This document shows, in pieces, positions 1 through 15,722 of a DNA stretch of 15,722 nt (the stretch's first letter is position 1; the number at the start of each line of letters is the position of its first letter). The translations under genes and the position numbers were made by a program. This stretch comes from Candidatus Altiarchaeota archaeon (GTDB lineage Archaea > Altiarchaeota > Altiarchaeia > IMC4 > QMZM01), in assembly GCA_038891095.1 (NCBI GenBank), contig JAWAEV010000012.1:1-15722 (forward strand), written 5' to 3'. The notes beneath the pieces are model-generated. The model was given only the letters and a program-made list of their open reading frames with translations. It did no database searches and was not told the DNA's origin.

Positions 1-127
1 CCTATATGTGCTCGATAATACTCTCCAAGTTCATACTGCGAAGATAATTGAGAACAAGTAATCTGATAGGTATACCTCTCTCCAGGGCGCAGTTGGAATT
101 TTGTTGTATCTGCGCTGCAAAGAGCAT
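1..127. repeat. Terminal direct repeat, left copy (127 bp, identical to 15596-15722)
   Basis: Read directly: cctatatgtgctcgataatac...ctgcgctgcaaagagcat occurs at both 1-127 and 15596-15722. Confidence 0.98.
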
Positions 128-398
128 CACTTATATTCACTGCAACTCCTGTTATGTTCATTTTCAATCCTGCTTCGTTTGTAATGCTAAGTATAAATTT
201 ATTTGTGCTTTTTTGCGCTACCCAATCAATAGGTTTAATTTCAGAGAAGCCGCTACATCCTGGAGGTGGTTTTGGTGGAGAAAAAGCGCCAAATTGCCAA
301 AGTGCGACCCCTATAATTAAAACTGCTAAAATTGCCCATCCATATGTGATAAGATACTCCATCGCTGCTTGTGCTGTTTTGGCTTTTTTCTTTTCCAT
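1..398 (-). CDS. Archaeal type IV pilin-like protein with class III signal peptide, 5' part (continues across the end overlap to 15523)
   Basis: Manual translation from ATG at 398: MEKKKAKTAQAAMEYLITYGWAILAVLIIGVALWQFGAFSPPKPPPGCSGFSEIKPIDW...ITCSQLSSQYELGEYYRAHI, open to the window edge. Basic leader, then A|QAAME with Glu at +5, then a hydrophobic helix: the class III (prepilin) signal pattern. Absent from the ORF track because it runs off the edge. Confidence 0.88.
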   Translation of the reverse strand, partial: MEKKKAKTAQAAMEYLITYGWAILAVLIIGVALWQFGAFSPPKPPPGCSGFSEIKPIDWVAQKSTNKFILSITNEAGLKMNITGVAVNISDALCSADTTKFQLRPGERYTYQITCSQLSSQYELGEYYRAHI

Positions 399-434
399 TT
401 TATATAATGATTTTATTTTTTGGAATATATAAAC

Positions 435-797
435 TTAAAGAATTTCTAAGTTTACAGGAGTACCGTTTTGGTCATATGCATGAACATCCTCGATTGATTC
501 GTATGGATAAGAAACTATGATATGTAAAATGCCCGTTCTTTTAAAAAATTTTAGATCTTCGTTTGATGGCAAAAAATTTTTTCCTGGATGTGAGTGAATG
601 CTACCAATAATTGTTTTATCTATCGGCACCATATCCCTGCGTTGCATTGAAAAATTTTCTCCAAAGATAGTTCCTGGTAAAATTAAAATTTCCTTAATCT
701 CTTTTTTATTTCCTCTCAGCAAGCCTGAGAATTCTTTTGGATAAAAATTTTTCGAAGCGTTAAGTGCAAATTCTAATGCACTCTTACGAATTTTCAT
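435..797 (-). CDS. JAMM/MPN+ (Mov34/MPN/PAD-1) zinc metalloisopeptidase, archaeal type
   Basis: Catalytic Glu in YPKEFSGLL and the HSHPxxxxxPSxxD motif (IHSHPGKNFLPSNEDL); 120 aa. ATGA overlap with the nfeD stop at 794-797. Confidence 0.9.
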   Translation of the reverse strand: MKIRKSALEFALNASKNFYPKEFSGLLRGNKKEIKEILILPGTIFGENFSMQRRDMVPIDKTIIGSIHSHPGKNFLPSNEDLKFFKRTGILHIIVSYPYESIEDVHAYDQNGTPVNLEIL

Positions 798-2086
798 TCT
801 AAAGGCTCAACTATAAGCAAAGTTCCCTCTTTCCTAACAATTCTTACTTCTTCACCTTTTTTTATTTTTCTTTTTCCTTTTTCAACTTTTGCTTTCCAAA
901 GTTCTCCATTATAAAGAACAAAACCACCTTCTTTATCACTCATATCCTCTTCAGCTTTTGCTGTCTCACCACTTAATTCGCCAATGACCGGCTTCTTGAA
1001 TTTTATCTCAGCGACTTTAAATAGTGCAAATAATAAAAAAAGAGCCAGAATTACTGCAGGCAAAGAAATTGCAAAAAATAAACTCTCTTTAAATTCTCTT
1101 GAGAGAGACCAATTTGGTGAGGTTAAAGGACCAATTAGAATTATCCCCAAAACTACTGCTATAATTCCTGTGATACCCACTATACCAAAACCAGGTGTTG
1201 TAAATTCAAATAAAATTAAGATACCACCTAAAAAAATAAGTAATAAACCAATGAAATTTATATCAAAGCCAATTCCAATAAGTCCAAGTAATATCATGAA
1301 AATTCCAAAAATTTCAGAACCGAATCCAGGGGAAGAAAGCCCAAAAATTAATGCATAAATACCTATCATCAACAAAATTGAAGCTATTACAGGATCGGCA
1401 ACTATTGATAAGAATCCAACTTTCATAGATGGCTGAAATTTTTCCACTTTTACATTTCTTGTTTTTAGAGTTATTTCGCCAGTTGTTGTTTTTAATTTCA
1501 TACCATCAATTTTGTTCATTAGATCTGAGATATCTTCAGCTAAAATTTCTATAACGCCTGCATTCAGAGCTTGAACATCATTTAAATTCAAATTTTCAGT
1601 GATAAATTTTTTAGCAATTGTTATGTTTCTGTTATGCATTCTCATTCTCTCCTCAATGAAGGCAGTTAGAGCATTTATAATTTTTGACTCATTTATAGGT
1701 TGGGAACTTTCCAAGCCCAAAGATACAGGTTGAGATGAACCAATAACAGTATAAGGTGCCATTGCAGCAACATGAGTTGATAATAAGATAAAAGTTCCGG
1801 CAGACCATGCTTTAGAGCCTTTAGGATAAACATAGCCTACAAATGGAATCTCTGAATTTTCAATAAGCCTCATTATCTCCAGAGTTGCAGTTAGCTCTCC
1901 ACCTGTAGTATCTAATGTAAGAACGATAATATCTGGTTTCTCCTCAATTGCTTCTTTGATTAATTCTACATGCGCTTTAGTTATTACCTTGTCAATATTA
2001 ACAACTAATATATTAGTTGCTGCATTTACAAAAGAGATTGACAGGAGTATAAAAAATAAAAAAAGTAGAATTATTGTTTTTTTCAT
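794..2086 (-). CDS. nfeD: NfeD-family (long form) membrane-bound ClpP-class serine protease
   Basis: Signal peptide, LDTTGG, AWSAGTFI (catalytic Ser), MAPYTVIGS, ESKIINA (dyad Lys), multi-TM region with PGFG motifs and a C-terminal OB fold (GFVLYNGELWKA...VRIVRKEGTLLIV). Confidence 0.93.
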   Translation of the reverse strand: MKKTIILLFLFFILLSISFVNAATNILVVNIDKVITKAHVELIKEAIEEKPDIIVLTLDTTGGELTATLEIMRLIENSEIPFVGYVYPKGSKAWSAGTFILLSTHVAAMAPYTVIGSSQPVSLGLESSQPINESKIINALTAFIEERMRMHNRNITIAKKFITENLNLNDVQALNAGVIEILAEDISDLMNKIDGMKLKTTTGEITLKTRNVKVEKFQPSMKVGFLSIVADPVIASILLMIGIYALIFGLSSPGFGSEIFGIFMILLGLIGIGFDINFIGLLLIFLGGILILFEFTTPGFGIVGITGIIAVVLGIILIGPLTSPNWSLSREFKESLFFAISLPAVILALFLLFALFKVAEIKFKKPVIGELSGETAKAEEDMSDKEGGFVLYNGELWKAKVEKGKRKIKKGEEVRIVRKEGTLLIVEPLE

Positions 2087-2185
2087 TATAATTCTATTAT
2101 TTACCTTAAATCATAAAAAATAAGATAAATTCGAAACTATTTAAATTGTAGATCATAAATTATTAAAAGGACATTAGGTTTACAG

Positions 2186-2833
2186 ATGGATCCAGAATTT
2201 AAGAAAGGACTTAAGAAAGGACTTAAAAAAGGACTTATTGTTGGACTTATAATAGGACTAATACTCTCAATACCTTATATAATATTGTCGCAGTTTGGGA
2301 TATATAAGCCGGCAATATATCTTTATCCTAAGGAACCAACAAATGTTTCTGTAAAACTTATTACTAATGCAGCTATAACAAAGTCGATTCCTGAATATAC
2401 TAATGAGTGGCTTGTTTTTGCAACACCAGAAGGGAAAATAAACTCTAAGTATGATTATCTATACTATGAGGCAGATGCACATGGTAGAATAGATGTTAAA
2501 GATGGATGGATAATAGAAAAAAACAAGATACGAGAGTGGTTTAATGAGTATCTACCTAAACTTGGATTAAACGAACGTGAGAAATCAGATTTTATGGATT
2601 ACTGGTTGTACACTCTACCAAATGCAAATTATTATCTAATTACGCCGCTAACTCAAGAAGAAATTGATAATCTCATAAAACTTGAAATTAATCCAAAACC
2701 AGATACAGTAATTAGAGTAATGCTCTATTTCAAACCATTATCTCATAGGATTAATATTAAAGAACCAGAAGTGTCTACTCCAAAAAGAGAGGGATTTGTT
2801 GTAGTGGAATGGGGAGGTATAATGGACAAATGA
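2186..2833 (+). CDS. Conserved hypothetical membrane-anchored protein (KPxIYLYP...YLxYEA...DFxxYW...VVEWGG family)
   Basis: One N-terminal TM helix followed by YKPAIYLYP, YDYLYYEA, LGLNEREKSDFMDYW, PKPDTVIRV and REGFVVVEWGG. I recognise this as a widespread family of unknown function. Confidence 0.8.
   Translation: MDPEFKKGLKKGLKKGLIVGLIIGLILSIPYIILSQFGIYKPAIYLYPKEPTNVSVKLITNAAITKSIPEYTNEWLVFATPEGKINSKYDYLYYEADAHGRIDVKDGWIIEKNKIREWFNEYLPKLGLNEREKSDFMDYWLYTLPNANYYLITPLTQEEIDNLIKLEINPKPDTVIRVMLYFKPLSHRINIKEPEVSTPKREGFVVVEWGGIMDK
2201..2260 (+). repeat. 12-bp period in-frame tandem repeat (NNNNNNGGACT[T/A] x5)
   Basis: aagaaaggactt aagaaaggactt aaaaaaggactt attgttggactt ataataggacta, encoding KKGL KKGL KKGL IVGL IIGL. 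Confidence 0.85.
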
Positions 2834-3288
2834 AAAATAATAAAGAAAAAACTCAACAATATAAAATAGGATACCTTATGGGTCTTTGTATAGGTGTTTG
2901 TATTATGCTTCTTTCTACCATGCTTATAGTAGTAATACTAACTAGCAAACCATCTACTTCTACCTTCTCAAGAGGTTTTGGAAAAATAAAAGTACTTAAC
3001 CCAAGTATTAGTTATTCCGGTACAACCTTAAGATTTCGTATATTCAATGGTGTAGGCAAAACAATTACCGGAACTAACATTACAGTAGAAGGTTGTACTT
3101 GTGCCTCCAGCATATGTCAAAATATTAAAATAGGTGCAGGAGATTTTTACCAAATTAATGTAACTTGTCCTTTTAAAGACAGAGGAGAAAGTTTTTCTGT
3201 CTTTGTGAACATAACTTATTTTGAAAATGTTGGAGGTACACTAGTATTACATCAGGATAAAGGTATATTAATGGGTTCTGCTGACTAG
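2830..3288 (+). CDS. Pilin-like membrane-anchored protein, paralogue of the junction pilin, with no canonical class III cleavage site
   Basis: Start probably at ATG 2830 (ATGA overlap with the upstream stop) rather than 2809. After the TM helix it aligns by eye with the junction pilin: GFGKIKV/GFSEIKP, NGVG/NEAG, GAGD/RPGE, VTC/ITC, GESF/GEYY, ITY/INY, HQDKGILMGSAD/HSSRGDCWGVVE. Confidence 0.7.
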   Translation: MKNNKEKTQQYKIGYLMGLCIGVCIMLLSTMLIVVILTSKPSTSTFSRGFGKIKVLNPSISYSGTTLRFRIFNGVGKTITGTNITVEGCTCASSICQNIKIGAGDFYQINVTCPFKDRGESFSVFVNITYFENVGGTLVLHQDKGILMGSAD

Positions 3289-3299
3289 ATATAATTTTT

Positions 3300-4073
3300 T
3301 CACTCGTTAGTTTTCTTCCCTTTCCTGTCTAAAATTCCTTTAGCTAAGCCAGCAATTAATCCAGAATCACTTGAAGGCACAACAATCAAATTTTTTTCTC
3401 TTGCTATCTCAGTCAAAGTTTGGAATTCTCTCAGTTTAATTGCTATTGGTGTTTCCTCATATAACTTAGCTGCTTCTTGCATTTTCTTTGCTGCTTGGAA
3501 TTCACCATCTGCAATTATAATTCTTGCCCTTCTCTCTCTTTCAGCTTCTGCTTGTTTTGCAATTGCTCTTAGCATACTCTCTGGAAGAGCGACATCCTTT
3601 ATTGTAACACTACTAACTTTAACTCCCCATGGGTCAGTTCCAAGATCTAAAATTTCCTGTAATTTTTTATTTAATTCCTCTCTTTTAGATAGGAGATCAT
3701 CTAACTCAACTTGTCCGAGAACATCTCTAAGTGTTGTTTGTGCTAATAACATTGTTGCTAAGGAATAATTTTCAACTTTAACAACAGCATCATTTGGATT
3801 TGAAACTCTGTAATAAACAACAGCATCCACGCCAACTGAAACATTATCTTTTGTAATTACATTCTGTTTCTCAACATCCAAAACAACTGTCCTTAAGTCA
3901 ACTAAAACCATCTTGTCGATAATAGGTATAATAAAAAAAACTCCAGGACCCTTTGCTCCTACTAATCTCCCTAATCGGAATATAACACCTCTTTCATACT
4001 CTTTAACAATCCTCACAGCACTAAAAAAAATAAAAAACAAAACCAACAAAATTGTATAAAAAAACAAAGACAT
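3300..4073 (-). CDS. Stomatin-like SPFH/band 7 (slipin) protein
   Basis: [68 protein letters not shown]. Start moved from 4091 to ATG 4073 because a Shine-Dalgarno lies just upstream of it. Confidence 0.95.
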
Positions 4074-4077
4074 GTTT

Positions 4078-4085
4078 TCACCTCC
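4078..4085 (-). promoter_or_regulatory. Shine-Dalgarno GGAGGTGA for the stomatin gene
   Basis: Minus strand reads GGAGGTGA-AAAC-ATG (ATG at 4073). Confidence 0.8.
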
Positions 4086-4244
4086 TTCCATTATAATTTA
4101 TATCTCAATATAAATTTTCCAATATTTAAGTTTCACCTTACACTTTATATTCTTTTTTATTATTATATACTTACACTTATAAATTAATTCTTTAAGATAT
4201 ATAGGATAAGGAGGATAATTAGGAGAAAAAGCATTAAAAATTAA

Positions 4245-4733
4245 CTATACAACTTTCCCTCCTTGATATCTACCATTGTATGGTTTACCTCCTTCAGAAA
4301 CTTCCTCAAAGATTAATTGGGCAATTCTTGCTCCTTTTTCAAATTTAAATTCATTTTCTGAGAGATTTTTCAAACCTATTGTTAAAGTTCCTTTAAATCC
4401 AGGGTCAATTAGTGCAGTCTCAACTGAGCAACCCATTCTAAATAAAGATGATCTAGGTAAAATTCTTCCTGCTAAATTTTCAGGCATGTTTACTCTCTCT
4501 ATAGTTTCAACTAATAGATATTCATTTGGCTTTAATTCATACTCACTAAAATTTAGTTCCTCAATTTTTGGACTCTTATGCTTTTTACTACCAATAAAAC
4601 CAGGAGTTTTTATCTTATAAATTTTTCCAATTCTTAGATCATAACCAGAAGAGCTTAAGCACTCTAAGGAAAAATTTTCTATCAATGATTTTTCTTTTAC
4701 AAGTTTGAGAATTTTTTCATATGATAACAGCAT
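4245..4733 (-). CDS. Trimeric dUTPase / dCTP deaminase superfamily protein, probably an archaeal-type dUTPase
   Basis: GYDLRIG, ETIERV, PRSSLFRMG, IDPGFKG, RIAQLIF, YNGRYQ. The Glu expected after DPG in dCTP deaminases is absent (GTLTIGLKN). Confidence 0.85.
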   Translation of the reverse strand: MLLSYEKILKLVKEKSLIENFSLECLSSSGYDLRIGKIYKIKTPGFIGSKKHKSPKIEELNFSEYELKPNEYLLVETIERVNMPENLAGRILPRSSLFRMGCSVETALIDPGFKGTLTIGLKNLSENEFKFEKGARIAQLIFEEVSEGGKPYNGRYQGGKVV

Positions 4734-4734
4734 T

Positions 4735-7239
4735 TTAGCTTTTACTCAATTTTAAAATTTCAATAACTCTTCTCGTTATTACATCAATGAAAAATAATAG
4801 CAATGCAGCAAATATAAAATAATCTTGTAAATTTTCCCTACTGTTTACTTTCATGACAGATTTCTCTTTTGCATAATTCAAAATTTCTTCTATTGCAGAT
4901 CCCTTTTCTGTAAAGTTGTATAAATTGCCATTTGTCAGTTCTGAGATTTTTCTTAGTCTTTCAATGTCTATACCTAAGTTAAAGTATTCCTCTCTTTGAT
5001 TTACTGCAATTGCATCAATGTCTTTTCCAAATAAATTTTCAGCAGTGATTTCATAGATGCCCGAATTTTCTGGTGTAAAACTCAAGGAGAAAAGACCTAT
5101 GTCAACTTGTTTAGCATCAAACTCCTTAGTTGAATTTTTTTCTTTTATATAGACTTTTGGTTTTTCCTCTGTTTTTATCATGATACTTGCCTTATCCCCC
5201 AGGAAAATGTCATCAGTTGTTATCTTTAAAGGCTTTTTCTTTTCTAGATCATAAATTGCCCAATTCATTATTCTTGATATTAACTTTCCACCCTCAGCAG
5301 TGTAAAGATTTCCTGCCCAAAGAGCGCCATTATCAGTTGTTATAGCAGCAACTCTTCCTAAACCAAATCTCCAAACTGTGACAACAGGTTTTTTATCAAC
5401 TGTTGAAATTAAAACTTGTGCAACTGTTTTAGCACTAACACCATTTAAATCATTTATTTTAGTGTCAATCCTAAGCCCTTCTGTGATAAAATGATATGGA
5501 TTATAAATTTTCACTGTATGATAGCCAGAAGATTCTTCCTCTTCCCTAAAAACAGCGCTTAGTCTTTGGTTTTCTTCCATCCAGAAATAAAGTCCATTGC
5601 TTTCTCTTGCAATTTCTTGCATAAGTTCTTGGCCTTCTTTTGCTTGTGCTCTATCGCCAACAGAAACAGAATAAATTTTTATCCCTTTACTTGCAATACT
5701 TTTGACTTTTGATAAAATTGCTTCTTTTTTCTCACCACCTGGAACACCATCTGAAAGAAATATAATATAGGCTTCGTTTTCATATTCTTGAAGAATTTCT
5801 TCTGCCTTTGAGAGAGCAGGCAAAAAATTCGTGCCGCCAGTAGAAGAAGCTTTTAATTTTAAGATATTCTCCTCAATTAATTTTTTATTTGAACCAATTT
5901 TTGTTAAATCTATTATAGTATAAACAGGAACATTAAATGCAAGCACAGCAACTGAATCCTCAGAGCTTAGTTGTCTTAATAAATTTATTGCAATTGCTTT
6001 TTCTTCATCAACATATGTTTCATATGCTTGTGCTCCTTTATATCCCATAGATGCTGAGACATCAATTAAAAAAACTACAGCAATTGGCTTTCTCTTTTCT
6101 TTTGGTTTTTCACCTGAAATAACAGGTAAAATTCTTTCAAAATTTGAATTTTCATAATTACCTCGATCAAAAGAATTCTCACCTCCAATAACAACCAAGC
6201 CATTACCTGAGCTAAGGTAATTGCTAAGGGAATTTACTATATTAACAGAAAGATCCTCTATATTCTGATCGTCTAAAACAACAAGGTCATAATTCTGAAA
6301 GCCTTCTTCAAGTTTTTTTGAAACAAAAACCTTATAGTTCTTTTCTAAAACTCTTATCAATGGCGAATTTGAATTTTTGCTTATAACTAAAATTTGTGGT
6401 CTTTCAACAACCTCAACAATTTTTCTTACATAATTATTTTCAGTGAAAAAATCTTCACTATACGGAGTTACTTCTACAGCAATAGTATGTATCCCTGGCT
6501 TTACAAATGATATCATAAATTCAAATTCTCTGATATTTGAATCTTGCTCAACTCTTTCTGCTCTGAGAACATTGCCATCAACAATAAACTTTAAGCTATA
6601 GCCAGCCCTGCCACCAATTTTTGAAATTTTCACCAAGACCTTATATTCTGTGTTCATTGGAATTGTTCTCTCTCCTATAATTTCTGAAATGTAAATTTCA
6701 CTTTTATTGAGTTTTGGCATTATCGAAAAAATTTTTGTTGTATCAGAAAGTAATTTTGCAACATCTTCTGGTTTATGAGCATAGTTGTTATTTCCATCAG
6801 AAATTAATAGCAGTATATCACTTCTTAAATCTTTTATTGATTCCTGATATAGTGCATTTCCAATTTCTGTCCTCCCAGATGATTCTGAGAATCTCTCAAA
6901 TTTTAATTTATAAGAACTTTTGTTTTTTATTTTCTCTGAGATCTCATTATAAAGTTCTTCACCAAGTTTATTATAAATTTTCATGCTAGCTGAGGAATCC
7001 TCTAAAATTTTAATTGAAATTTCTCTTGGCTCTTCCTTAGTTGTAAATGTATAAGGAGAAGAAATTGCAATTATGATAAGTGAAAATAATACAAATCTTA
7101 TAAACAGGAAGAGCCATCTACCTAAGCTTAATTTTTTCTCCCTTCTGAAGTATAAAAATAAAGTAATTCCCAATACTAATGGAATTAAAAGTAAAATTGG
7201 CTGTTCAACTCCAAATTTTATACCATAAATCTCTATCAT
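4735..7239 (-). CDS. Membrane vWA-domain protein (vWA-like, Ig-like, glutamine-amidotransferase-like and vWA domains)
   Basis: N-terminal TM hairpin; DSSAS and ISDG (first vWA); GGENSFDRGNY (GATase-like); intact MIDAS DVSAS...GGT...LSDG; WRFGLGRVAAITTD; C-terminal TM helix. Confidence 0.85.
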   Translation of the reverse strand: MIEIYGIKFGVEQPILLLIPLVLGITLFLYFRREKKLSLGRWLFLFIRFVLFSLIIIAISSPYTFTTKEEPREISIKILEDSSASMKIYNKLGEELYNEISEKIKNKSSYKLKFERFSESSGRTEIGNALYQESIKDLRSDILLLISDGNNNYAHKPEDVAKLLSDTTKIFSIMPKLNKSEIYISEIIGERTIPMNTEYKVLVKISKIGGRAGYSLKFIVDGNVLRAERVEQDSNIREFEFMISFVKPGIHTIAVEVTPYSEDFFTENNYVRKIVEVVERPQILVISKNSNSPLIRVLEKNYKVFVSKKLEEGFQNYDLVVLDDQNIEDLSVNIVNSLSNYLSSGNGLVVIGGENSFDRGNYENSNFERILPVISGEKPKEKRKPIAVVFLIDVSASMGYKGAQAYETYVDEEKAIAINLLRQLSSEDSVAVLAFNVPVYTIIDLTKIGSNKKLIEENILKLKASSTGGTNFLPALSKAEEILQEYENEAYIIFLSDGVPGGEKKEAILSKVKSIASKGIKIYSVSVGDRAQAKEGQELMQEIARESNGLYFWMEENQRLSAVFREEEESSGYHTVKIYNPYHFITEGLRIDTKINDLNGVSAKTVAQVLISTVDKKPVVTVWRFGLGRVAAITTDNGALWAGNLYTAEGGKLISRIMNWAIYDLEKKKPLKITTDDIFLGDKASIMIKTEEKPKVYIKEKNSTKEFDAKQVDIGLFSLSFTPENSGIYEITAENLFGKDIDAIAVNQREEYFNLGIDIERLRKISELTNGNLYNFTEKGSAIEEILNYAKEKSVMKVNSRENLQDYFIFAALLLFFIDVITRRVIEILKLSKS

Positions 7240-9161
7240 ATTGCACCTCTAGATTTATAGAGTATTGCCTCAATCATGAGTAAAAGCAAAGAGAGAGAAA
7301 GCAGATATTGCCATATAAAATTTCTCTCCTTAATTCTCTCCTGAAAAATATTAAAATTTTTGTCATTTATTGTTTCTATGCCAACAGAGTTAAAGATGTT
7401 TGATTCTTCAGAGTTACAAAGGCTAACTACTATGGTTTCATTTTTTCTTGTAGTATTGCTTTCTATTGTTGCTTTGTAAATCCCAATTTCATCAAGGATA
7501 ATTTCTTTTGAGTATAAAACTTTTCCAGATGGTGTTGTTAAATTTGCTATGGATGGTAATATAAGATGCTCTCCAGAATTTAAATTTTTTGTTTGAATTA
7601 TCTCTTCTTTATTTAAAAATTCTATAAGCTGTGATATGAATATTGGAAATGAAGATGCTATATGAAAATTGCTCCACTCAGGCAATGGATTTATGCCAAT
7701 AAAAGCAACTTTCCCTTTGCCATAGTCTCTTAGTGCTATAACTGCAGAGTTTTTTGTTTTTGCAATAATAAGAGTATTATTCTTCTCCCTATTTTTTATG
7801 TATTTATTTAGGAGTACACTCTCAAGTGAAACATCATCAAGAATTTCATGCTTTTTTTCAATATTTATTGTGCTCGTTGCTTCTACTATAGAATCAACAT
7901 TCACAGGTAAAATATCAGCAAGATTTTCATCCTTAGTGTTAACAAGGTAGCTACTTGCAATTATAACTAATTTCCCACCCTTCGCTATATAATTTTTAAT
8001 TTCTGTAAATACTGTTTGTATTAAAAGCTCTTTATTAACATTGCCAAGTATAACTAAGTCAAATTCATTTATGTTTGGAATAACAGGCGGATTTGAAACT
8101 TTAACTGAAAACTTAGGATTAGATTCAAGAGCAATTTTTAAGTAGGGATCTGAATTTGTTATGAGCAAAATTTTATAATTTTTAACTTCTGGCAGAAGAA
8201 AGTATGCTAAGTTGTCCAATGCTAGGGCATCATCATTCTTTATCTTTACAGTTATTATGTGCTGATCATTTGAGCATTCACCTCTATAGTAGAATAACTC
8301 TTCAGAAAAAGGTCGAATTTTTTTTGAGATTTTGTTGTTTACGAGTTTATCATCAATATAAATCTCTGCTATAACCTCTTCAGAAAAATTGTTAAAATTT
8401 TCAACTGTGAATGCTGAATAAAATTCATTGATTTTAGTTAAAAATCTTTTTGCATTTATATTAGTTATAGCAAAATTTTTTCCACTACCTATAACTTTCA
8501 CAAATTTGACATCGATATTTTTATTTAACGAACTACTTTTTGCGAGTTTTACATCACCAACATTTGAGAAGTCTGAGAAAACATAAATTTTCTTTGGTTT
8601 TAACTCAGACGATGATAAAATATCATTTGCAAGCATTATTGCACTATATAAATCAGAATCTGAATCACTTGCAGAGAGTTCTTTTATCAGAGAAATTGCA
8701 GTTTCTTTATCAGAATTTTTTAAGAGCAATATCGGCACTCTCTCAGCAAAGATAATACTAATGTAGCTATCATAGCTTTCATCATTGAGAATTGAAATTG
8801 CTAATTCTTTGGCTTTTTCAAATCTACTTTCTTTAATATCATTTGACTGCATTGAGATAGCACCATCAATTATCATAGCTATGCTAGCTCTCTCTTTTTT
8901 TGATGTTTCTGAAATAAAAAAAGGATTTGCTATACTAAGTGCTAATAGCATAATGATAAAAATTTGTACTATAAGCAATGGATCCCTGATAAATTTCTTG
9001 AAAAAAGAGCTAAACCTCTTGCTCTTCTCTATGTGCATTATAAACATAATGCTCGGGAATTTTAAATTTTTTGGTTTTGGTTTTAGTAGATAAAGTATTA
9101 TTATTGGTAATAACAATAGTAACAATAATAGCGCATCAGGCCTCAATAGGTCAATTGGCAT
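7236..9161 (-). CDS. BatA (aerotolerance regulator N-terminal) plus vWA domain membrane protein
   Basis: N-terminal LLPIIILYLLKPKPKNLKFPSIMF...LLIVQIFIIMLLALSIANP is the BatA double-TM signature. Followed by a vWA domain (IIDGAISM, SRFEKAK, VFSDF), LALDN, GKGKVAF and a C-terminal TM helix. ATGA overlap with the downstream gene at 7236-7239. Confidence 0.85.
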   Translation of the reverse strand: MPIDLLRPDALLLLLLLLPIIILYLLKPKPKNLKFPSIMFIMHIEKSKRFSSFFKKFIRDPLLIVQIFIIMLLALSIANPFFISETSKKERASIAMIIDGAISMQSNDIKESRFEKAKELAISILNDESYDSYISIIFAERVPILLLKNSDKETAISLIKELSASDSDSDLYSAIMLANDILSSSELKPKKIYVFSDFSNVGDVKLAKSSSLNKNIDVKFVKVIGSGKNFAITNINAKRFLTKINEFYSAFTVENFNNFSEEVIAEIYIDDKLVNNKISKKIRPFSEELFYYRGECSNDQHIITVKIKNDDALALDNLAYFLLPEVKNYKILLITNSDPYLKIALESNPKFSVKVSNPPVIPNINEFDLVILGNVNKELLIQTVFTEIKNYIAKGGKLVIIASSYLVNTKDENLADILPVNVDSIVEATSTINIEKKHEILDDVSLESVLLNKYIKNREKNNTLIIAKTKNSAVIALRDYGKGKVAFIGINPLPEWSNFHIASSFPIFISQLIEFLNKEEIIQTKNLNSGEHLILPSIANLTTPSGKVLYSKEIILDEIGIYKATIESNTTRKNETIVVSLCNSEESNIFNSVGIETINDKNFNIFQERIKERNFIWQYLLSLSLLLLMIEAILYKSRGAI

Positions 9162-9207
9162 TTTATTTTAATAATTTTTATTATACTTGGTAGCTAATAA
9201 TAATATT

Positions 9208-9645
9208 ATGACAAATTATAAAAAGCACCTATTGGTTTATTTTTTCATCTCAGCAATAATATTTTCATTTTTTCTCCATTTTAAATTTTTTATAAATCCT
9301 GAAATTCTCTTAACTTCTTTCTTTGTTGGTATGGCATATACTTTCCTTCCTGATATTGATGTGCCAAGTTCTAAGATTAGAGTAATTGTAACAAAAATTT
9401 CACTTGCTGCAATACTTGTGGCTTTATTGCTATACGCTTTCTATATACCTAATAAGACATTAATTTTCATTTCAATTTTTTTGGCAGTTCTTCTATATCT
9501 CTTAGAATTTACTAAGCATAGAGGATTTTTTCATTCGATTTTAGCAGGAATATTTCTTTCTGCTCCCTTCTATTTTATAAATCTATACTCTTTTATTTTT
9601 GCTATGCTCGGATTTATTTCACATATATTAGCTGATAGAATATAA
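9208..9645 (+). CDS. Membrane-bound metal-dependent hydrolase (YdjM-like)
   Basis: Motifs LPDID, HRGFFHS and SHILAD plus an N-terminal His (KKH) in a multi-TM protein. ATG at 9208 preferred over the TTG at 9187. Confidence 0.85.
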   Translation: MTNYKKHLLVYFFISAIIFSFFLHFKFFINPEILLTSFFVGMAYTFLPDIDVPSSKIRVIVTKISLAAILVALLLYAFYIPNKTLIFISIFLAVLLYLLEFTKHRGFFHSILAGIFLSAPFYFINLYSFIFAMLGFISHILADRI

Positions 9646-9646
9646 A

Positions 9647-9665
9647 TGTTATATAAAATATAACA
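9647..9665. promoter_or_regulatory. Palindrome TGTTATAT-AAA-ATATAACA (copy downstream of the wHTH gene)
   Basis: 8-bp perfect arms; 18/19 identical to 10208-10226. Confidence 0.65.
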
Positions 9666-9671
9666 ATATCA

Positions 9672-10202
9672 TTAATAACTCCTTATTTTTTCTCTCCAAT
9701 ATAGAAATTCATTATAGAGCACTATTGTATCCTCATGCAAAATTTGATCTTTAATAGCTCTGAATTCACTTAAATTTAAAATTTTCATTATTTTTGATTC
9801 TGATAAGCTTTCACTTGAATAAGAGGTAATTAATATAACTTCAGAGTTTTTTCTATTATATAGAACAATTGCTGGCTCCCAAATTAAGGTCAAAATGTCA
9901 TTTGTTATGTCCTGTAGCTTTAATAGCGATGGATTTTTTCTGAAGAATTCTTGCCTTCTTTCTAACTCAAAATATTCAAAGATTTTCAATAAAAACTCAT
10001 TTTTTAAATTCGCTCTAAAAAAACTCCTATTCTTCTCTTTTCTAACATTCAGAAAGCCTTTTTTTAAGAAATAATGCAGGTATTTATGTGCATTGTCCAC
10101 AGGAATTTTTGCAATTCTTGAAATTTCCCTTAAATAATACTCCTTAAATGGTTCTTCAAAGAAAATTTTTAAAATCCTCTCCTTGCCTTTTTTCATTTCC
10201 AT
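9672..10202 (-). CDS. Winged-HTH DNA-binding protein with an apparently degenerate C-terminal nucleotidyltransferase-like region
   Basis: ILKIFFEEPFKEYYLREISRIAKIPVDNAHKYLHYFLKKGFL...KNRSFFRANL is the wHTH commonly fused to MNT domains in archaea. The C-terminal half lacks the GS...DxD motif. Confidence 0.75.
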   Translation of the reverse strand: MEMKKGKERILKIFFEEPFKEYYLREISRIAKIPVDNAHKYLHYFLKKGFLNVRKEKNRSFFRANLKNEFLLKIFEYFELERRQEFFRKNPSLLKLQDITNDILTLIWEPAIVLYNRKNSEVILITSYSSESLSESKIMKILNLSEFRAIKDQILHEDTIVLYNEFLYWREKIRSY

Positions 10203-10205
10203 ATT

Positions 10206-10228
10206 TTTGTTATATAATATATAACAAA
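10206..10228. promoter_or_regulatory. Operator-like palindrome TTTGTTATATA-A-TATATAACAAA directly upstream of the wHTH gene
   Basis: 11-bp perfect arms located between the start codon (10202) and a TATA-box-like TTTATAAA (10231-10238). Confidence 0.7.
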
Positions 10229-10271
10229 CATTTATAAATCAATCTATTCTTTTATGTTAACTAATTTAAGT

Positions 10272-10301
10272 TACAACAATGCCAATACAACAATGCCAAT
10301 A
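10272..10301. repeat. Perfect 14-bp tandem duplication (TACAACAATGCCAA x2, plus TA)
   Basis: Read directly at 10272-10285 and 10286-10299 in the divergent wHTH/taw3 intergenic region. Confidence 0.9.
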
Positions 10302-10390
10302 AATTTAAATTATTCTCCATTCATTTTCTGAGGAGTTCAAATTTTTTGATTTGTTTTTCTTTTAAATTTCTATAAATTCTATAATTTACA

Positions 10391-10987
10391 ATGAAAAATT
10401 CAGATAAGCGGTTTTCTGATCAAAAAAAATTTGCAATGAGTAGGTTAGAAAAAGCAATAAATAAGGGAGAAGTTGATCACGCTATACTATCTTTAATCAA
10501 ATATATCAACTCCTTAGATGATTTCTATACAACATCAACATGCTCAGGGAGAATTGCCCTTCTCCAAGATGTTGGCTCAAAAAAAGAAAATTTCCATTTA
10601 GCGAAGTGGCATAGAAATGTTAAATTTCCAGAGTTGAAAAGTGTTATAGTGGGGCTACCAACTAAGGGCATAACTTGGTTTATTCAGGAATCTAGCATTA
10701 TGCATATCGTTTCAAGAAATTTTGATGGAGGTGCAAATTTGCTTAGATTGGCTTTATCAAATGGTTTTAAGCATTCTGGTTTTCAAGGATTGAAAGATGG
10801 TAGGTTTGTTGTTGAAATATGTAGTAGTGAAAGGATGGAAGTGCCAATTGCATCTAATGGTAGTTTACTTGTTTCTGATGAGTATCTTAGATATCTCTTA
10901 AATTTAGCAAATAAAAAATTTTCAAAATCTCAGCAGAGATTAAAAAAATTTGAGAAAGTTCTGAAAAGAAAGTTAAGAGAGAGTTAG
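10391..10987 (+). CDS. taw3: tRNA(Phe) wyosine-derivative methyltransferase Taw3/TYW3
   Basis: VDxxI...INS, YTTSTCSGRI, KWH, HIVSR, GFKHSG, VEICSSERMEVPI and YLLNLANKK match the TYW3 family. Confidence 0.93.
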   Translation: MKNSDKRFSDQKKFAMSRLEKAINKGEVDHAILSLIKYINSLDDFYTTSTCSGRIALLQDVGSKKENFHLAKWHRNVKFPELKSVIVGLPTKGITWFIQESSIMHIVSRNFDGGANLLRLALSNGFKHSGFQGLKDGRFVVEICSSERMEVPIASNGSLLVSDEYLRYLLNLANKKFSKSQQRLKKFEKVLKRKLRES

Positions 10988-11020
10988 TTGATTTTTAAAT
11001 AAGAAAGATATAAAGAATAT

Positions 11021-12451
11021 ATGTCTAAAATGCTTCAAGCAAAACAAGTTCGTGAAGGTGTTTGGGAATTTTTTCCTGAAAATGCAAAGGTTCCTGTAAG
11101 AATTTATGCCACTGAAAAACTGCTTAGGCAGATGGAAGAAGGTGTTTTCAAGCAGGCGGAGAATGTTTCTAAACTACCAGGAATACAAAAAGCAAGTTTA
11201 GTTATGCCTGATGGTCATTATGGTTATGGTTTTCCTATTGGTGGAGTTGCTGCATTCTCTCTTGATGATGGAATTGTAAGCCCGGGAGGAGTTGGTTATG
11301 ATATAAATTGCGGCGTCCGTCTTTTAGCTACGCCATTATCAGAAAAAGAATTGAGGCCAAAATTGAATTCTCTTATTGAAAATTTATTCCGAAACATACC
11401 CTCAGGTGTTGGATCAGAGTCAAAGCTAAGGGTTTCAGATAATGAGTTAAAAGAAATTGCTATAAATGGGGCTCGTTGGGCAGTTGAGCATGGTTATGGA
11501 ACAGAAAAGGATTTACAGCATACTGAGGAGCTTGGATGCATATCTGGGGCAAATCCAGATAAAGTAAGTAAAAGAGCGGTTGATAGAGGTAAACCTCAAA
11601 TAGGAACTCTTGGTGCTGGGAATCATTTCTTAGAAGTGCAGAAGGTTGATAAAATTTTTAATTTTGAGATTGCAAAAAAATTTGGTATTGAATTTGAAGG
11701 GCAAATTACAGTGATGATACACTGCGGCAGCAGAGGTTATGGACATCAAATTGCTGATGACTATATAAAAGTGATGCTTTCTGCTGCAAGGAAATATAAA
11801 ATTTCTTTACCTGATCAAGAACTTTCATGTGCTCCTCTGAACTCAGAAGAAGCTAAAGCCTATATATCTGCAATGAAATGTGCTGTAAATTACGCATTTT
11901 GCAATAGACAAATGATAACTCATTGGGTAAGGAAAACATTTGAAAATTTATTTGGAGATACTGAAATCAACCTAATTTATGATGTCTGCCATAATATCGC
12001 TAAATTTGAAGAACATGAGATTAATGGCCATAAAGAAGAAGTTTGTGTTCATCGCAAAGGTGCGACAAGGGCCTTTGCATCTGGAAGAAAAGAAATTCCT
12101 CAAGAATATAGAGCTATTGGCCAACCTGTTATAATTCCTGGTAGTATGGGAACAGCCTCTTATCTTTTAATAGGAACTGAAAAGGCAATGAATGAGACTT
12201 TTGGGTCAACATGTCATGGTTCTGGTAGAGTCATGTCAAGACATGGTGCCCTAAGAGAAGTCCGTGGCGAAGAAGTCAAAAGAAAATTAGAAGCTAAGGG
12301 AGAAGTTATCAGAGCAGCATCATGGAAAGTTCTTGCGGAGGAGATGCCTGAGGCTTATAAAGATATTGATGAAGTTATTCAGTCTGTAGAAATTAGTGGA
12401 ATTTCAAAGCCAATAGCAAAAATGATACCGATAGGTGTTACTAAAGGTTAA
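11021..12451 (+). CDS. rtcB: tRNA-splicing/RNA repair ligase RtcB
   Basis: MPDGHYGYGFPIGGV, GVGYDINCG, GTLGAGNHFLE, HCGSRG, HNIAK, HRKGAT, PGSMG, STCHGSGR (His nucleophile) and EEMPEAYKD; 476 aa, no intein. Confidence 0.98.
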   Translation: MSKMLQAKQVREGVWEFFPENAKVPVRIYATEKLLRQMEEGVFKQAENVSKLPGIQKASLVMPDGHYGYGFPIGGVAAFSLDDGIVSPGGVGYDINCGVRLLATPLSEKELRPKLNSLIENLFRNIPSGVGSESKLRVSDNELKEIAINGARWAVEHGYGTEKDLQHTEELGCISGANPDKVSKRAVDRGKPQIGTLGAGNHFLEVQKVDKIFNFEIAKKFGIEFEGQITVMIHCGSRGYGHQIADDYIKVMLSAARKYKISLPDQELSCAPLNSEEAKAYISAMKCAVNYAFCNRQMITHWVRKTFENLFGDTEINLIYDVCHNIAKFEEHEINGHKEEVCVHRKGATRAFASGRKEIPQEYRAIGQPVIIPGSMGTASYLLIGTEKAMNETFGSTCHGSGRVMSRHGALREVRGEEVKRKLEAKGEVIRAASWKVLAEEMPEAYKDIDEVIQSVEISGISKPIAKMIPIGVTKG

Positions 12452-12689
12452 TTGTTCTTTATATCTAAAAAAAATTAATACAAAATTTGTTTTTATTTCA
12501 TTAATATGTTAGTATGTACTTATTTTTGCCATTTGTTTTTCATTATAAGTGACATTTTCAACTAAATTTATCAAAAAATTAAAAAAAATTTAAACAAAAT
12601 GCTTGCTCTATCTCATTTTTAAATATTAAATTCAATATTATATATCAATTTTTGTTCTAATATAAATCACATAAAATCACACATATATA

Positions 12690-15509
12690 ATGAAAATAAA
12701 CCTGCTATCGTTGAAGGCAATATTTATTAAATCGACCTCTATAATATTAATTTTATCCTTACTTCTCTCACTTTCTGAATATGCTTTTGCATTGGAAAGT
12801 AGCTTAAGCATAAGTTCAATTGCTTCATCATCTGCTAATGTACCTAATCTATCAATTTCTAGCTCTGTAATAAGCACAAAATCTACTGGTAGTATATCAA
12901 GCTTATCAGCTTCATCATCAACCCCAACACAAAAACTCTCAATAGCATCACAACCAACAAAACTCCAAATAAGCACAGCATCTACAGGCAGTATAGCAAC
13001 CTTAGCAAGCTCAACCCCAACACAAAAACTCTCAATAGCCTCACAACCAACAAAACTCCAAATAAATACTCCAACAATAGGCAGTATAGCAAGCTCAAGC
13101 TCAACACAAAAACTCTCAATATCACAACCAACAAAACTCCAAATAAGCACAGCATCTACAGGCAGTATAGCAACCTTAGCAAGCTCACAACAGACACCTC
13201 AGCTTAAAATCTCTCAACAACCAACAAAACTCCAAATAAATACTCCAACAATAGGCAGTATAGCAAGCACCTCAACCCCAACACAAAAACTCTCAATATC
13301 ACAACCAACAAAACTCCAAATAAACACTCCAACAATAGGCAGTATAGCAAGCACCTCAACCCCAACACAAAAACTCTCAATAAATCCTGGAAATTCAAAT
13401 ACTTTGCTTAGTGGTTTAACTATAGGAAATTCTAAAAAAGAAAATCGTCTAAGTATTGCCTCTATTTCTAAGCAGAAGGGTCAATTACAAATATCCCCTA
13501 AAGCAGGAAACAATATTGCTAAAATTATTGCTGACAATGGCGGTAAAATTGCTAAACTTTCATTAACAACTTCAAATAAAGTAGATAATCCTAACATTGC
13601 AACAACATTAAAGACAGCAGAAAATAAACTTAGTGAGTTAAGCATAGCTTCATTAGCCAATGAAAAAGTATCACAGCCAAAAAATAAACTAAGTATCGCA
13701 TCTCTAACTAATGGTACAAACTCAATGACGATATCTCAGATATCAATTCCAAAGTCTGAGATAAGTAAACTAAAAGTATCAGACACGCTTTCAGCAAACA
13801 AAATCAATAGCAAGTTTTCAATTGCAAAACTTAGTGAAAATATTGGAATAAAATATGATGCAAAACAAGATAATACTCTTACTACGGCATCTGTAGGTGG
13901 AGGAGTAGGCATATTTGCTCATGCGGCTAGTTCTGGGAGAATTGGAAAACCGATAACAACACCTAAGTTAGAGCTAGATCAACTTGTCGCTATTCATTTA
14001 ACTGATACTTTCCCCGAAAATGGTATAATAAAAACTACGGGCAATTATAAAACCTCTTTGAGTAGTATAGGAGGAAAAAAAGCAGTTGTTCCAAGAGAGA
14101 CAATTCACTTCTCACTTAATGGACCTGTTAATGCTCACATGGGAGGAGACTGGACCAAAAAAAGAATTGCAATTGTTGTCCCTCTCGAGGATATAAAAGA
14201 AAATGTAGTTAACCTATACTCAGTTGATACATTTACATTTGGAAATGTAAAACTTCCTACATCAGCGACGATACTTGTTAAAGAAAGTGGTCACTCTCTT
14301 ATAGGAAACCCTGGAAAAGCCAAAATTGTTGTTGTTCCTAATAATGTACCCATTCAAGAATCCGTAATAGAAGAAATTAAAAGAAAGGGCTACACTGTTG
14401 CAAGTGTTGGTGCTAATTATTGGACTAGAGTTGAGGCTGAAAATCCAATTTATTCAGCTGATGATATTGGCGATATCAGATACAATACAATGCATTGGAC
14501 TGACGAATTTACACGACTTTCAGAAGAACTTGGAAAATCAACTGGTTTACATGATCTTACTCCTTACTCTAATGTAGCGGATTATGCAGTAGATGCTTAT
14601 AGACTCCTAAATTTAGAAGGATATGAAGCAAATCCAAAGGGTGTTATAAACAGCCTAGCTGAGAACATGTTAGAAATTTATGATGATATAGACCTTTCAA
14701 TTCCAGAACAAAGAAGAGCATATGAAAGAATGGAAAGAGTTGTTAATGGGCTTATCAAAAATGTTGAAAATAAATTTGGAGTTAGACTTGATCCAGAACT
14801 TAAAAAACAACTTGAAGAAATTGCACCTGGCTCAGATTTAAGAAAAGCGAGAATTGCTGGCTTTAGACCAACTGGAACTAAAGCGTTAGTGCCAGTAGAA
14901 AAAGCAAATTTGCCAGTCGAAAAAACAAAAAATCCAATTGTTTTGAGCAAAATGCAACCTGCTGAAAATCCTAAAATAGGACTAATTCCAAAAGGTAATC
15001 CACAGATAACATCAACAGGGGTCATATCAAATATAGGAGGCAAAGTGCAAAATACTTTAAGCTCAGAAGCACTCCAAGTTGGTAGTAAAACATCTACCGG
15101 CGCATTTAGTGGGGGGGAAGTTTCAGTAGCGAAGAATATGTTGAGTAAAACCGGCATAATAAAGACTACGACACCTAAAGTCCCTATTGGAACATTAGTT
15201 GGTAAGTTTTTTGGAGTTGTAGGTTGGGTTGATATGGCTGCACCAATTGTAACATTTAAAGGTCAAGAATGGCAACAACCAACTAAGGCAGAAAAAGAGC
15301 TAGAAGCAAGACTTAAATATGATCCCAAATTTAGAAAAGCATATATAAACTCATTGATAAATAGAGAAAAAGAAGGGCAAAATGCCAGAATTGAAGCCTA
15401 TGCTTTTAAGGAGTTGACAGATGAAGAAATAGATCTTATGGTAAAAGACCCAATGAAATTTATAGAGAAAGTAAAAGCAGATATGGAGAAAGAAAATACG
15501 GAAAAGTAA
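12690..15509 (+). CDS. Large secreted protein: signal peptide, Ser/Thr-rich repeats, central globular domain (possibly ART/Tpt1-like) and helical C-terminus
   Basis: 939-aa uninterrupted ORF with a Sec-type signal ending YAFA|LE, about 350 aa of LSIAS-type low-complexity repeats, then LVAIHLTDxFP...PRETIHFSLNGPVNAHMGGDW. Function not established. Confidence 0.8.
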   Translation: MKINLLSLKAIFIKSTSIILILSLLLSLSEYAFALESSLSISSIASSSANVPNLSISSSVISTKSTGSISSLSASSSTPTQKLSIASQPTKLQISTASTGSIATLASSTPTQKLSIASQPTKLQINTPTIGSIASSSSTQKLSISQPTKLQISTASTGSIATLASSQQTPQLKISQQPTKLQINTPTIGSIASTSTPTQKLSISQPTKLQINTPTIGSIASTSTPTQKLSINPGNSNTLLSGLTIGNSKKENRLSIASISKQKGQLQISPKAGNNIAKIIADNGGKIAKLSLTTSNKVDNPNIATTLKTAENKLSELSIASLANEKVSQPKNKLSIASLTNGTNSMTISQISIPKSEISKLKVSDTLSANKINSKFSIAKLSENIGIKYDAKQDNTLTTASVGGGVGIFAHAASSGRIGKPITTPKLELDQLVAIHLTDTFPENGIIKTTGNYKTSLSSIGGKKAVVPRETIHFSLNGPVNAHMGGDWTKKRIAIVVPLEDIKENVVNLYSVDTFTFGNVKLPTSATILVKESGHSLIGNPGKAKIVVVPNNVPIQESVIEEIKRKGYTVASVGANYWTRVEAENPIYSADDIGDIRYNTMHWTDEFTRLSEELGKSTGLHDLTPYSNVADYAVDAYRLLNLEGYEANPKGVINSLAENMLEIYDDIDLSIPEQRRAYERMERVVNGLIKNVENKFGVRLDPELKKQLEEIAPGSDLRKARIAGFRPTGTKALVPVEKANLPVEKTKNPIVLSKMQPAENPKIGLIPKGNPQITSTGVISNIGGKVQNTLSSEALQVGSKTSTGAFSGGEVSVAKNMLSKTGIIKTTTPKVPIGTLVGKFFGVVGWVDMAAPIVTFKGQEWQQPTKAEKELEARLKYDPKFRKAYINSLINREKEGQNARIEAYAFKELTDEEIDLMVKDPMKFIEKVKADMEKENTEK
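12918..13382 (+). repeat. Intragenic tandem repeat of about 5.3 units of 81-93 bp, with two unit variants
   Basis: Recurring caaccaacaaaactccaaataa and acacaaaaactctcaata. Units encode TQKLSI(A)SQPTKLQI followed by either STASTGSIATLAS (A) or NTPTIGSIAS (B), in the order A-B-A-B-B. Confidence 0.95.
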
Positions 15510-15522
15510 AAAAGTTCCTGAG

Positions 15523-15722
15523 CTACTCGACCACACCCCAACAATCTCCTCTGCTGCTATGGCTTATCAAGGATTGCGGATTTGTGTAGTTTATCCCTAT
15601 ATGTGCTCGATAATACTCTCCAAGTTCATACTGCGAAGATAATTGAGAACAAGTAATCTGATAGGTATACCTCTCTCCAGGGCGCAGTTGGAATTTTGTT
15701 GTATCTGCGCTGCAAAGAGCAT
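15523..15722 (-). CDS. 3' part of the junction-spanning pilin gene
   Basis: Minus strand reads ...ALCSADTTKFQLRPGERYTYQITCSQLSSQYELGEYYRAHIGINYTNPQSLISHSSRGDCWGVVE* (TAG at 15525-15523), in the same frame as the 398->1 part. Confidence 0.85.
   Translation of the reverse strand, partial: ALCSADTTKFQLRPGERYTYQITCSQLSSQYELGEYYRAHIGINYTNPQSLISHSSRGDCWGVVE
15596..15722. repeat. Terminal direct repeat, right copy (127 bp)
   Basis: Identical to 1-127. Confidence 0.98.

Follow-up and report, generated by a model that had tools for sequence, protein, structure and literature searches.

Does a small contig that closes on itself within an archaeal genome bin represent a separate circular replicon, or a piece of chromosome that the assembler has looped? 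The question is raised by contig JAWAEV010000012.1 (here C12) of the Candidatus Altiarchaeota genome bin G000. The window analysed is the whole of this contig, 15,722 nt in length, 31.8% GC and free of Ns. Its two ends are identical over exactly 127 nt, with 1–127 matching 15596–15722 and the identity stopping there, and removal of one copy leaves a unit of 15,595 bp. A first-pass annotation of this DNA had pointed to the overlap and to the chromosomal character of the genes, and had offered four explanations: (a) a mini-chromosome, (b) an excised circle, (c) a tandem amplification and (d) a chromosomal segment between two near-identical pilin genes. If the circle were real, an ultra-small archaeon would possess a mini-chromosome that carries essential genes but no initiator, which would bear on the origins of multipartite genomes. 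Our analysis suggests that C12 is probably a regular part of this small-genome archaeon's one chromosome, closed falsely through a tandem array within a surface-protein gene, and not a separate replicon.

The G000 bin contains 958,546 bp in 15 contigs (completeness 93.65, contamination 0.48), each with a GC content of 31–32%, and C12 is the only one with an end overlap. Its tetranucleotide usage is unremarkable for G000, with 15 of 53 equal-size chunks lying further from the genome mean. Because the genes for RtcB, TYW3, dCTP deaminase, the JAB and NfeD proteins and both von Willebrand factor A (vWA) proteins are found only on C12 within G000, the contig is indispensable to this genome. False circularisation through repeats that reads cannot span is documented by Lui et al. 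(2021, PMC8172020), who ask for an end overlap longer than any repeat of the genome. C12 resembles such false circles of de Bruijn assemblers in that its overlap has the length of a usual maximum assembler k, its content is chromosomal and it has no replicon genes, and in that the repeat needed to close it is also found where a second contig of the bin stops. It differs from them in that the repeat is not at the contig ends but is an internal, imperfect tandem array found in two surface-protein genes.

The join within the pilin-like gene

The two overlap copies lie at an arbitrary cut point inside a minus-strand pilin-like gene, whose N-terminal 132 codons occupy 1–398 and whose last 24 codons and stop occupy 15523–15595, the latter convergent with the preceding surface-protein gene and 13 nt from it. 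In the linear window the gene is split into pieces of 132 and 65 amino acids, and on the closed unit a single open reading frame (ORF) of 156 amino acids is restored, just as the first-pass annotation had stated. The 132-aa part has no Pfam match, even at E values up to 5. The label 'pilin-like' rests on an N-terminal charged and hydrophobic segment, recognised by eye, that is common to about nine paralogues in G000 and to the hisS-adjacent genes of relatives described below; the segment is a candidate class III signal peptide, which in archaeal type IV pilin-like proteins consists of a short charged N-terminus and a conserved hydrophobic helix behind it.

Four public runs from one hot-spring study (X1 to X4) hold this sequence, and these were used as k=31 contigs only. 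The share of sampled words present is 0.98 in X1, which may be the source run, 0.59 in X2, 0.58 in X3 and 0.24 in X4. The X3 strain comes from another sample of the same study and differs by about 0.8–0.9% over most of the block; parts of the window are uncovered in X2 to X4 (e.g. 2101–2625 in all three), and these gaps were not used as evidence. The k=31 contigs pass from 15595 to 1 without branching in all four runs; both arms of the crossing reach 255 nt or more in X1 and X3, and the shorter arm measures 49 nt in X2 and 76 nt in X4. An 11,561-nt contig of X1 (record 1) runs from 13353 to 15595 and then from 1 to 9318, a second (record 3) covers 9815–12947, and a 12,960-nt contig of X3 (record 16) joins approximately 13618–15595 to 1–2022 and 3340–12523. 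Had the join lain in a repeat of at least 31 nt that also has different flanks elsewhere, the k=31 contigs would have been broken there, and the pilin join is thus real, contiguous DNA. The place where the contig is cut is merely where the assembler opened the loop. No further 25-mer or 127-mer copy of the overlap is present in G000, and the presence of one copy per unit together with the unbranched crossings agrees with the earlier view that the overlap is an assembler k-mer marking a graph loop and not a biological terminal repeat.

These observations bear directly on the proposal that the segment is bounded by two near-identical pilin genes, which drew on the location of the overlap inside a pilin-like gene in a genome with many pilin paralogues. 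The paralogues share only 30–38% protein identity with the join pilin, there is no second overlap copy, and the crossings in four of four runs refute near-identical pilin copies as the bounds of the loop. We therefore give this proposal almost no weight as it was written, with pilin genes as the repeats; a segment between near-identical repeats is nevertheless the right kind of explanation, the repeats being tandem arrays in two surface-protein genes.

The tandem array in the surface-protein gene

As assembled, the plus-strand gene at 12690–15509 encodes a secreted protein of 939 amino acids, with, in order, a signal peptide, a Ser-rich stretch, a tandem array, a linker, an alpha/beta and helical domain (residues ∼420–710) and a conserved tail. 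The array (12918–13382, plus strand) is 465 nt long and consists of about 5.3 copies of an 84–93-nt unit. Contigs assembled at k=31 bridge the entire circle with the exception of 12947–13353, within this array, which no independent contig of X1 or X3 spans. The array is also the only part of the circle with k-mers that recur elsewhere in G000 (304, 152, 57 and 22 at k=31, 55, 77 and 99, respectively), all of them starting between 12918 and 13352.

The repeat recurs at the 5′ end of a second contig of the bin, C11, where the start of a different gene (C11 354–676), encoding a signal peptide and a Cys-rich domain, leads into an array that is read in the same frame as in C12, before the contig end truncates the gene. 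The C12 array and positions 1–353 of C11 are 84–92% identical over alignments of 268–370 nt, and 80–93% identical over shorter pieces. The longest exact stretch common to both contigs is 120 nt (C11 310–191 and C12 12918–13037), and the last 70 nt of C11 are identical to C12 13242–13311. In X1 the array contigs have depths of 36.5, 69.1 and 51.5 compared to 10.7 for a flanking single-copy contig, a 3.4- to 6.5-fold excess that is rough, as other strains may add depth. Because the depth of the array in X1 is high while only one to three copies are assembled, array sequence is under-assembled. The overlap thus has the length of the assembler k and the loop passes through a repeat that is also present outside it, both of which are features of a false circle, and the array, not the pilin join, is the likely point of false closure. 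The 939-aa gene probably combines the first part of one gene (12690–12917) with the body of another (13383–15509). An architecture search for a longer homologue of the Cys-rich gene start of C11 found none, which is weak evidence.

Several other observations concern repeats of this kind in G000. Many of its contigs end in repeats of their own (C1 5′, C2 5′, C7 3′, C5 3′, C3 3′, C14 3′ and C11 5′), several of them tandem, for instance with periods of 291 nt at C1 5′, 180 nt at C2 5′ and 190 nt at C7 3′. The open frames at several of these repeat-bearing ends resemble surface proteins, and Cys-rich modules like that at the C11 gene start are also found at the C14 3′, C15 5′ and C5 5′ ends. Repeat arrays are the main source of breaks in the G000 assembly.

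Gene order around hisS in relatives

If the C12 loop was closed falsely, then a true chromosomal neighbor should exist, and the gene order of relatives can expose it. The genes beside the broken surface-protein gene of C11 are hisS (785–2071), a flavin reductase gene and a gene of the histone deacetylase family (HDAC). In the relative G015 the order is HDAC, flavin reductase and hisS, followed after 8 nt by a pilin gene and then a JAB gene, and the best G000 matches of these last two are the C12 join pilin (45% identity) and the C12 JAB gene (58%). The orientation in G015 fits a reverse-complemented C11 running into C12. This arrangement is widespread in the family. The hisS gene is single copy in all 22 family genomes and could be evaluated in 20 of the 21 relatives, the gene of G017 being cut by a contig end; a pilin-like gene adjoins the 3′ end of hisS in every one of the 20. 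The best G000 match of this hisS-adjacent pilin is the C12 join pilin in 17 of them and a paralogue on C1 in the other three (G011, G006 and G013), and a homologue of the C12 JAB gene (435–797) follows the pilin in G015, G005 and G016. In a tree of 27 pilins, with four rows left out as partial or mis-started, the C12 pilin groups with the hisS-adjacent genes, as do two long-branch G000 paralogues, and a distinct clade with good support unites six further paralogues of G000. By position, the join pilin is orthologous to the pilin found after hisS elsewhere in the family.

Two links follow from these comparisons. First, because the genes at the C11 end are the ancestral neighbors of the C12 pilin and JAB genes, C12 should continue C11 on the chromosome. 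Secondly, C11 leads from hisS to a gene start and an array, and C12 from an array and a gene body to the pilin, such that the insertion of a single surface-protein gene between hisS and the pilin would account for both. We infer that the C11 array continues into C12 from 13383 onwards, and that no circular molecule exists. A separate replicon would be expected to show no collinearity with the chromosomes of relatives across its borders; what we find is the adjacency of hisS and pilin in all of the evaluable relatives.

The hisS gene of G000 (locus L105) is itself unusual. It is only 33–38% identical to the hisS genes of its own family despite occupying the same syntenic slot, and is 56–57% identical to those of three metagenome-assembled genomes labelled Candidatus Micrarchaeota and about 45% identical to those of Candidate Phyla Radiation bacteria, in which the neighboring genes differ. 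A foreign hisS seems to have replaced the original gene in place.

On the other side of the block, the contigs that carry RtcB are ordinary chromosomal ones in each of the 12 relatives examined, the largest being a single-contig genome of 1.39 Mb. TYW3 is directly adjacent to RtcB in eight of these, 3 kb away in one, absent from the locus in two and not evaluable in one, and none of the 12 RtcB loci contains other C12 genes. There is no conserved block among the relatives corresponding to C12 as a whole; the pairs YdjM–BatA, dcd–vWA and NfeD–SPFH are kept in some of them. One loose-end 30-mer of X3 downstream of RtcB is absent from G000. The C5 3′ end carries a 955-aa surface-protein ORF without a start, and its assignment as the flank that would follow RtcB is a mere guess.

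Tests for an independent replicon

A 15.6-kb mini-chromosome that carries essential genes and is replicated in trans by the Orc1/Cdc6 of the host is one of the two alternatives, with the excised circle, that the first-pass annotation had called notable for a DPANN-like archaeon. In its favor are the closure with a k-length overlap, the single-copy, essential-type genes aboard, and an AT-rich, divergent intergenic region at 10203–10390. This is the most AT-rich intergenic region of C12 (GC ∼0.25) and lies between the divergent genes for a winged helix-turn-helix/minimal nucleotidyltransferase (wHTH/MNT) protein and TYW3. It contains most of a 25-nt imperfect palindrome (10192–10242), the left arm of which starts at 10192 inside the preceding gene, and 2.1 copies of a 14-nt tandem repeat (10272–10301), with one unit fewer in the X3 strain. 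The region probably serves as promoters. Searches of inverted repeats, composition and the orc1 neighborhood gave no evidence of an origin on C12 and no cluster of origin recognition boxes (ORB), although the hisS/orc1 region of C1 gave no clear origin motif for comparison. The GC skew of C12 follows the direction of transcription.

The search for replication and mobility genes was similarly negative. Scans of the 14 gene-like ORFs of C12 against Pfam, NCBIfam and PHROGs, together with a homologue search for the wHTH protein, found no Rep, Orc1/Cdc6, MCM, primase, integrase, transposase or capsid gene, and the family scans found no partition gene. The first-pass annotation had counted roughly 13 genes; the number is slightly higher, and its statement that replication and mobility genes are lacking holds, as does its description of the content as chromosomal housekeeping genes. 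The only Orc1/Cdc6 in G000 above the cut-off is encoded on C1. The wHTH protein was considered as a replication initiator and rejected, since eight of ten homologues carry the nucleotidyltransferase domains PF18765/PF01909, the TrmB/MarR wHTH matches being weak. There is no tRNA and no Rfam family in the window, and megablast comparison with plasmid and phage collections gave no match.

Haloarchaeal minichromosomes and megaplasmids are secondary circular replicons that can hold essential genes; they are typically tens to hundreds of kb in size and encode their own Orc1/Cdc6 or RepH-type initiators, and archaeal secondary chromosomes generally have origins of their own as well. Unlike these, C12 encodes no initiator. 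In the literature searched, the coverage of which was limited, small circles without an initiator have not been described from DPANN archaea. With neither initiator, partition gene nor origin-like ORB cluster, with a closure that depends on the array, and with a family-wide hisS–pilin–JAB order that places the block on the chromosome beside C11, the mini-chromosome lacks positive support and we regard it as very unlikely.

A proposed chromosomal arrangement and the recombination alternative

The chromosomal order that we propose is HDAC, flavin reductase, hisS, a surface-protein gene (gene A), pilin, JAB, NfeD and the remaining C12 genes through TYW3 and RtcB, and then the start of a second surface-protein gene (gene B). 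Gene A would comprise the signal peptide and Cys-rich domain of C11, a tandem array and the body at 13383–15509; the start of gene B would be 12690–12917, followed by an array of the same kind. The two arrays would thus lie about 15 kb apart in direct orientation, with near-identical stretches whose length reaches at least 120 nt. A path in the assembly graph would then pass from the array of gene B into that of gene A and the block between them would emerge as a loop, with the true entry (C11) left as a dead end within the array and the true exit lost from the bin.

Several observations weigh against this arrangement. First, no k-mer of the array recurs at k=127, every 127-mer of the circle being unique in the bin, and the last 127 nt of C11 have no exact match in C12, such that the binned contigs contain no edge leading directly from C11 to the loop. 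Because of these two facts a false join needs either a shared stretch of about k or longer in array sequence that is unassembled, or the loss of a low-depth branch; neither has been seen, and at a k=31 depth of about 11 a false join by either route is plausible. Secondly, the contig ends lie in the pilin gene rather than in the array, which is what an unbranched cycle gives. Thirdly, the second strain, in X3, shows the same circular permutation, though it too is open at the array. Fourthly, the predicted exit flank, in which a different gene body would come after the array, is absent from the 15 contigs, and no other contig end carries the array. Finally, the synteny comes from family-level relatives only and shows ancestry rather than present topology. 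None of the 41 genomes searched is of the same genus; a scan of metagenome contigs with the body of the 939-aa gene found no relative and a scan with RtcB found 80 loci, all at 59% identity or less, so neither a same-genus genome nor a metagenome contig is available to supply the linear context.

Some of these observations would be accommodated by real recombination between the two direct arrays, by which the whole population or a part of it would have acquired, beside the integrated form, a tandem duplication of the block or an excised circle that does not replicate. The join from the gene B start through the array to the gene A body would then be real DNA. The distance, direct orientation and exact identity of the arrays suit such an event, and the closure of the loop at k=127 in the absence of a repeated 127-mer and the common permutation of two strains are consistent with it. 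There is also a precedent in that recombination between near-identical genes has split the chromosome of Haloferax volcanii (Ausiannikava et al. 2018, PMC6063281), a spontaneous event of homologous recombination whose products carry their own origins, and in a similar manner recombination between near-identical repeats could in principle free a circle with essential genes from G000. The parallel is limited, because the Haloferax elements have chromosomal origins and rRNA loci and were physically shown, whereas C12 has no origin, initiator or rRNA and is known from its sequence alone. Nothing in the data requires recombination, as collapsed arrays alone yield the same graph. Moreover, an excised circle could not be the main form, because the only RtcB and dCTP deaminase genes of the genome would then sit on a molecule with no recognisable origin or initiator; the k=31 depth of the unique parts of C12 in X1 is 10.7–12. 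We consider recombination to be a rather unlikely account of C12. Of the earlier proposals, the excised circle has no positive support, and both it and a tandem amplification are conceivable as minority or additional forms. It is unlikely that the block is a real circular molecule in at least part of the population, formed by array recombination and either excised recurrently or maintained by the host as an initiator-less mini-chromosome.

The false closure of a chromosomal segment, which we favor, has some general implications. An end overlap of exactly k proves only that the graph contains a loop, and such a loop should be tested at any internal repeat that is common to another contig end, not at the overlap. 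Surveys of DPANN-type genomes should not include circular contigs of this sort in their counts of plasmids, viruses or additional chromosomes.

Gene content and strain variation

From the pilin gene rightwards, the closed unit encodes a 120-aa protein with a Prok-JAB/MPN domain (435–797, minus strand), single copy in G000, and a 430-aa NfeD membrane protease-like protein (794–2086, minus strand). Beyond an insert described below are the genes for an SPFH/Band 7 (stomatin-like) protein (3300–4091), a dCTP deaminase/dUTPase-like protein (dcd, 4245–4733, single copy in G000), an 834-aa vWA-domain membrane protein (4735–7239) and a 641-aa protein with a BatA N-terminal domain, vWA and DUF7408 (7236–9161), all on the minus strand. 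A 152-aa YdjM-like membrane protein (9187–9645) is encoded on the plus strand, and the 176-aa wHTH/MNT protein (9672–10202) on the minus strand; a homologue of the latter, 83% identical, is present on an 8.7-kb public contig. The TYW3 tRNA methyltransferase (10391–10987) and the RtcB RNA ligase (11021–12451) genes, both plus-strand and single copy, precede the surface-protein gene.

The central domain of the 939-aa protein varies between strains. In the X3 strain, 13903–14912 (residues ∼405–740) is replaced by 650 other letters, and in P0012, a 606-aa, array-truncated public homologue with 69% identity, the linker and C-terminal tail are kept and the middle is unrelated. Domains of the G000 type are widespread, with 617 proteins at E ≤ 0.001, some of them 2,000–6,900 aa long, and have invariant T, P, G, H, N, D, G and H positions. 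The predicted fold is confident (pLDDT 88.8). The domain has no sequence match in PDB, Atlas scores are weak (at most 0.84) and Foldseek gave nothing at E ≤ 0.001; VIA-wide gave Z values only up to 6.9, on the helical part.

Two further regions of the block are variable. A strain-variable 1.3-kb insert (2023–3339, plus strand), on the opposite strand to its neighbors, splits the usual SPFH–NfeD pair, which is adjacent in G015. It contains a 215-aa membrane ORF (2186–2833) and a 159-aa pilin-like ORF (2809–3288), both on the plus strand and with no family; the X2 and X3 strains have 101 other letters at this position (joint 2022 to 3340). The region upstream of BatA also seems variable between co-occurring relatives. 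In X2 to X4, extra contigs from other strains or species match only ∼9010–9184, the BatA N-terminus, and then continue into unlike sequence; there are loose ends at 9010, 9178, 9184 and 9282, and the summed depth over ∼9010–9320 is 2–3 times that of neighboring bins. In X1, the contig covering 9294–9823 has a depth of 6.6, compared to 10.7–12 in its neighbors.

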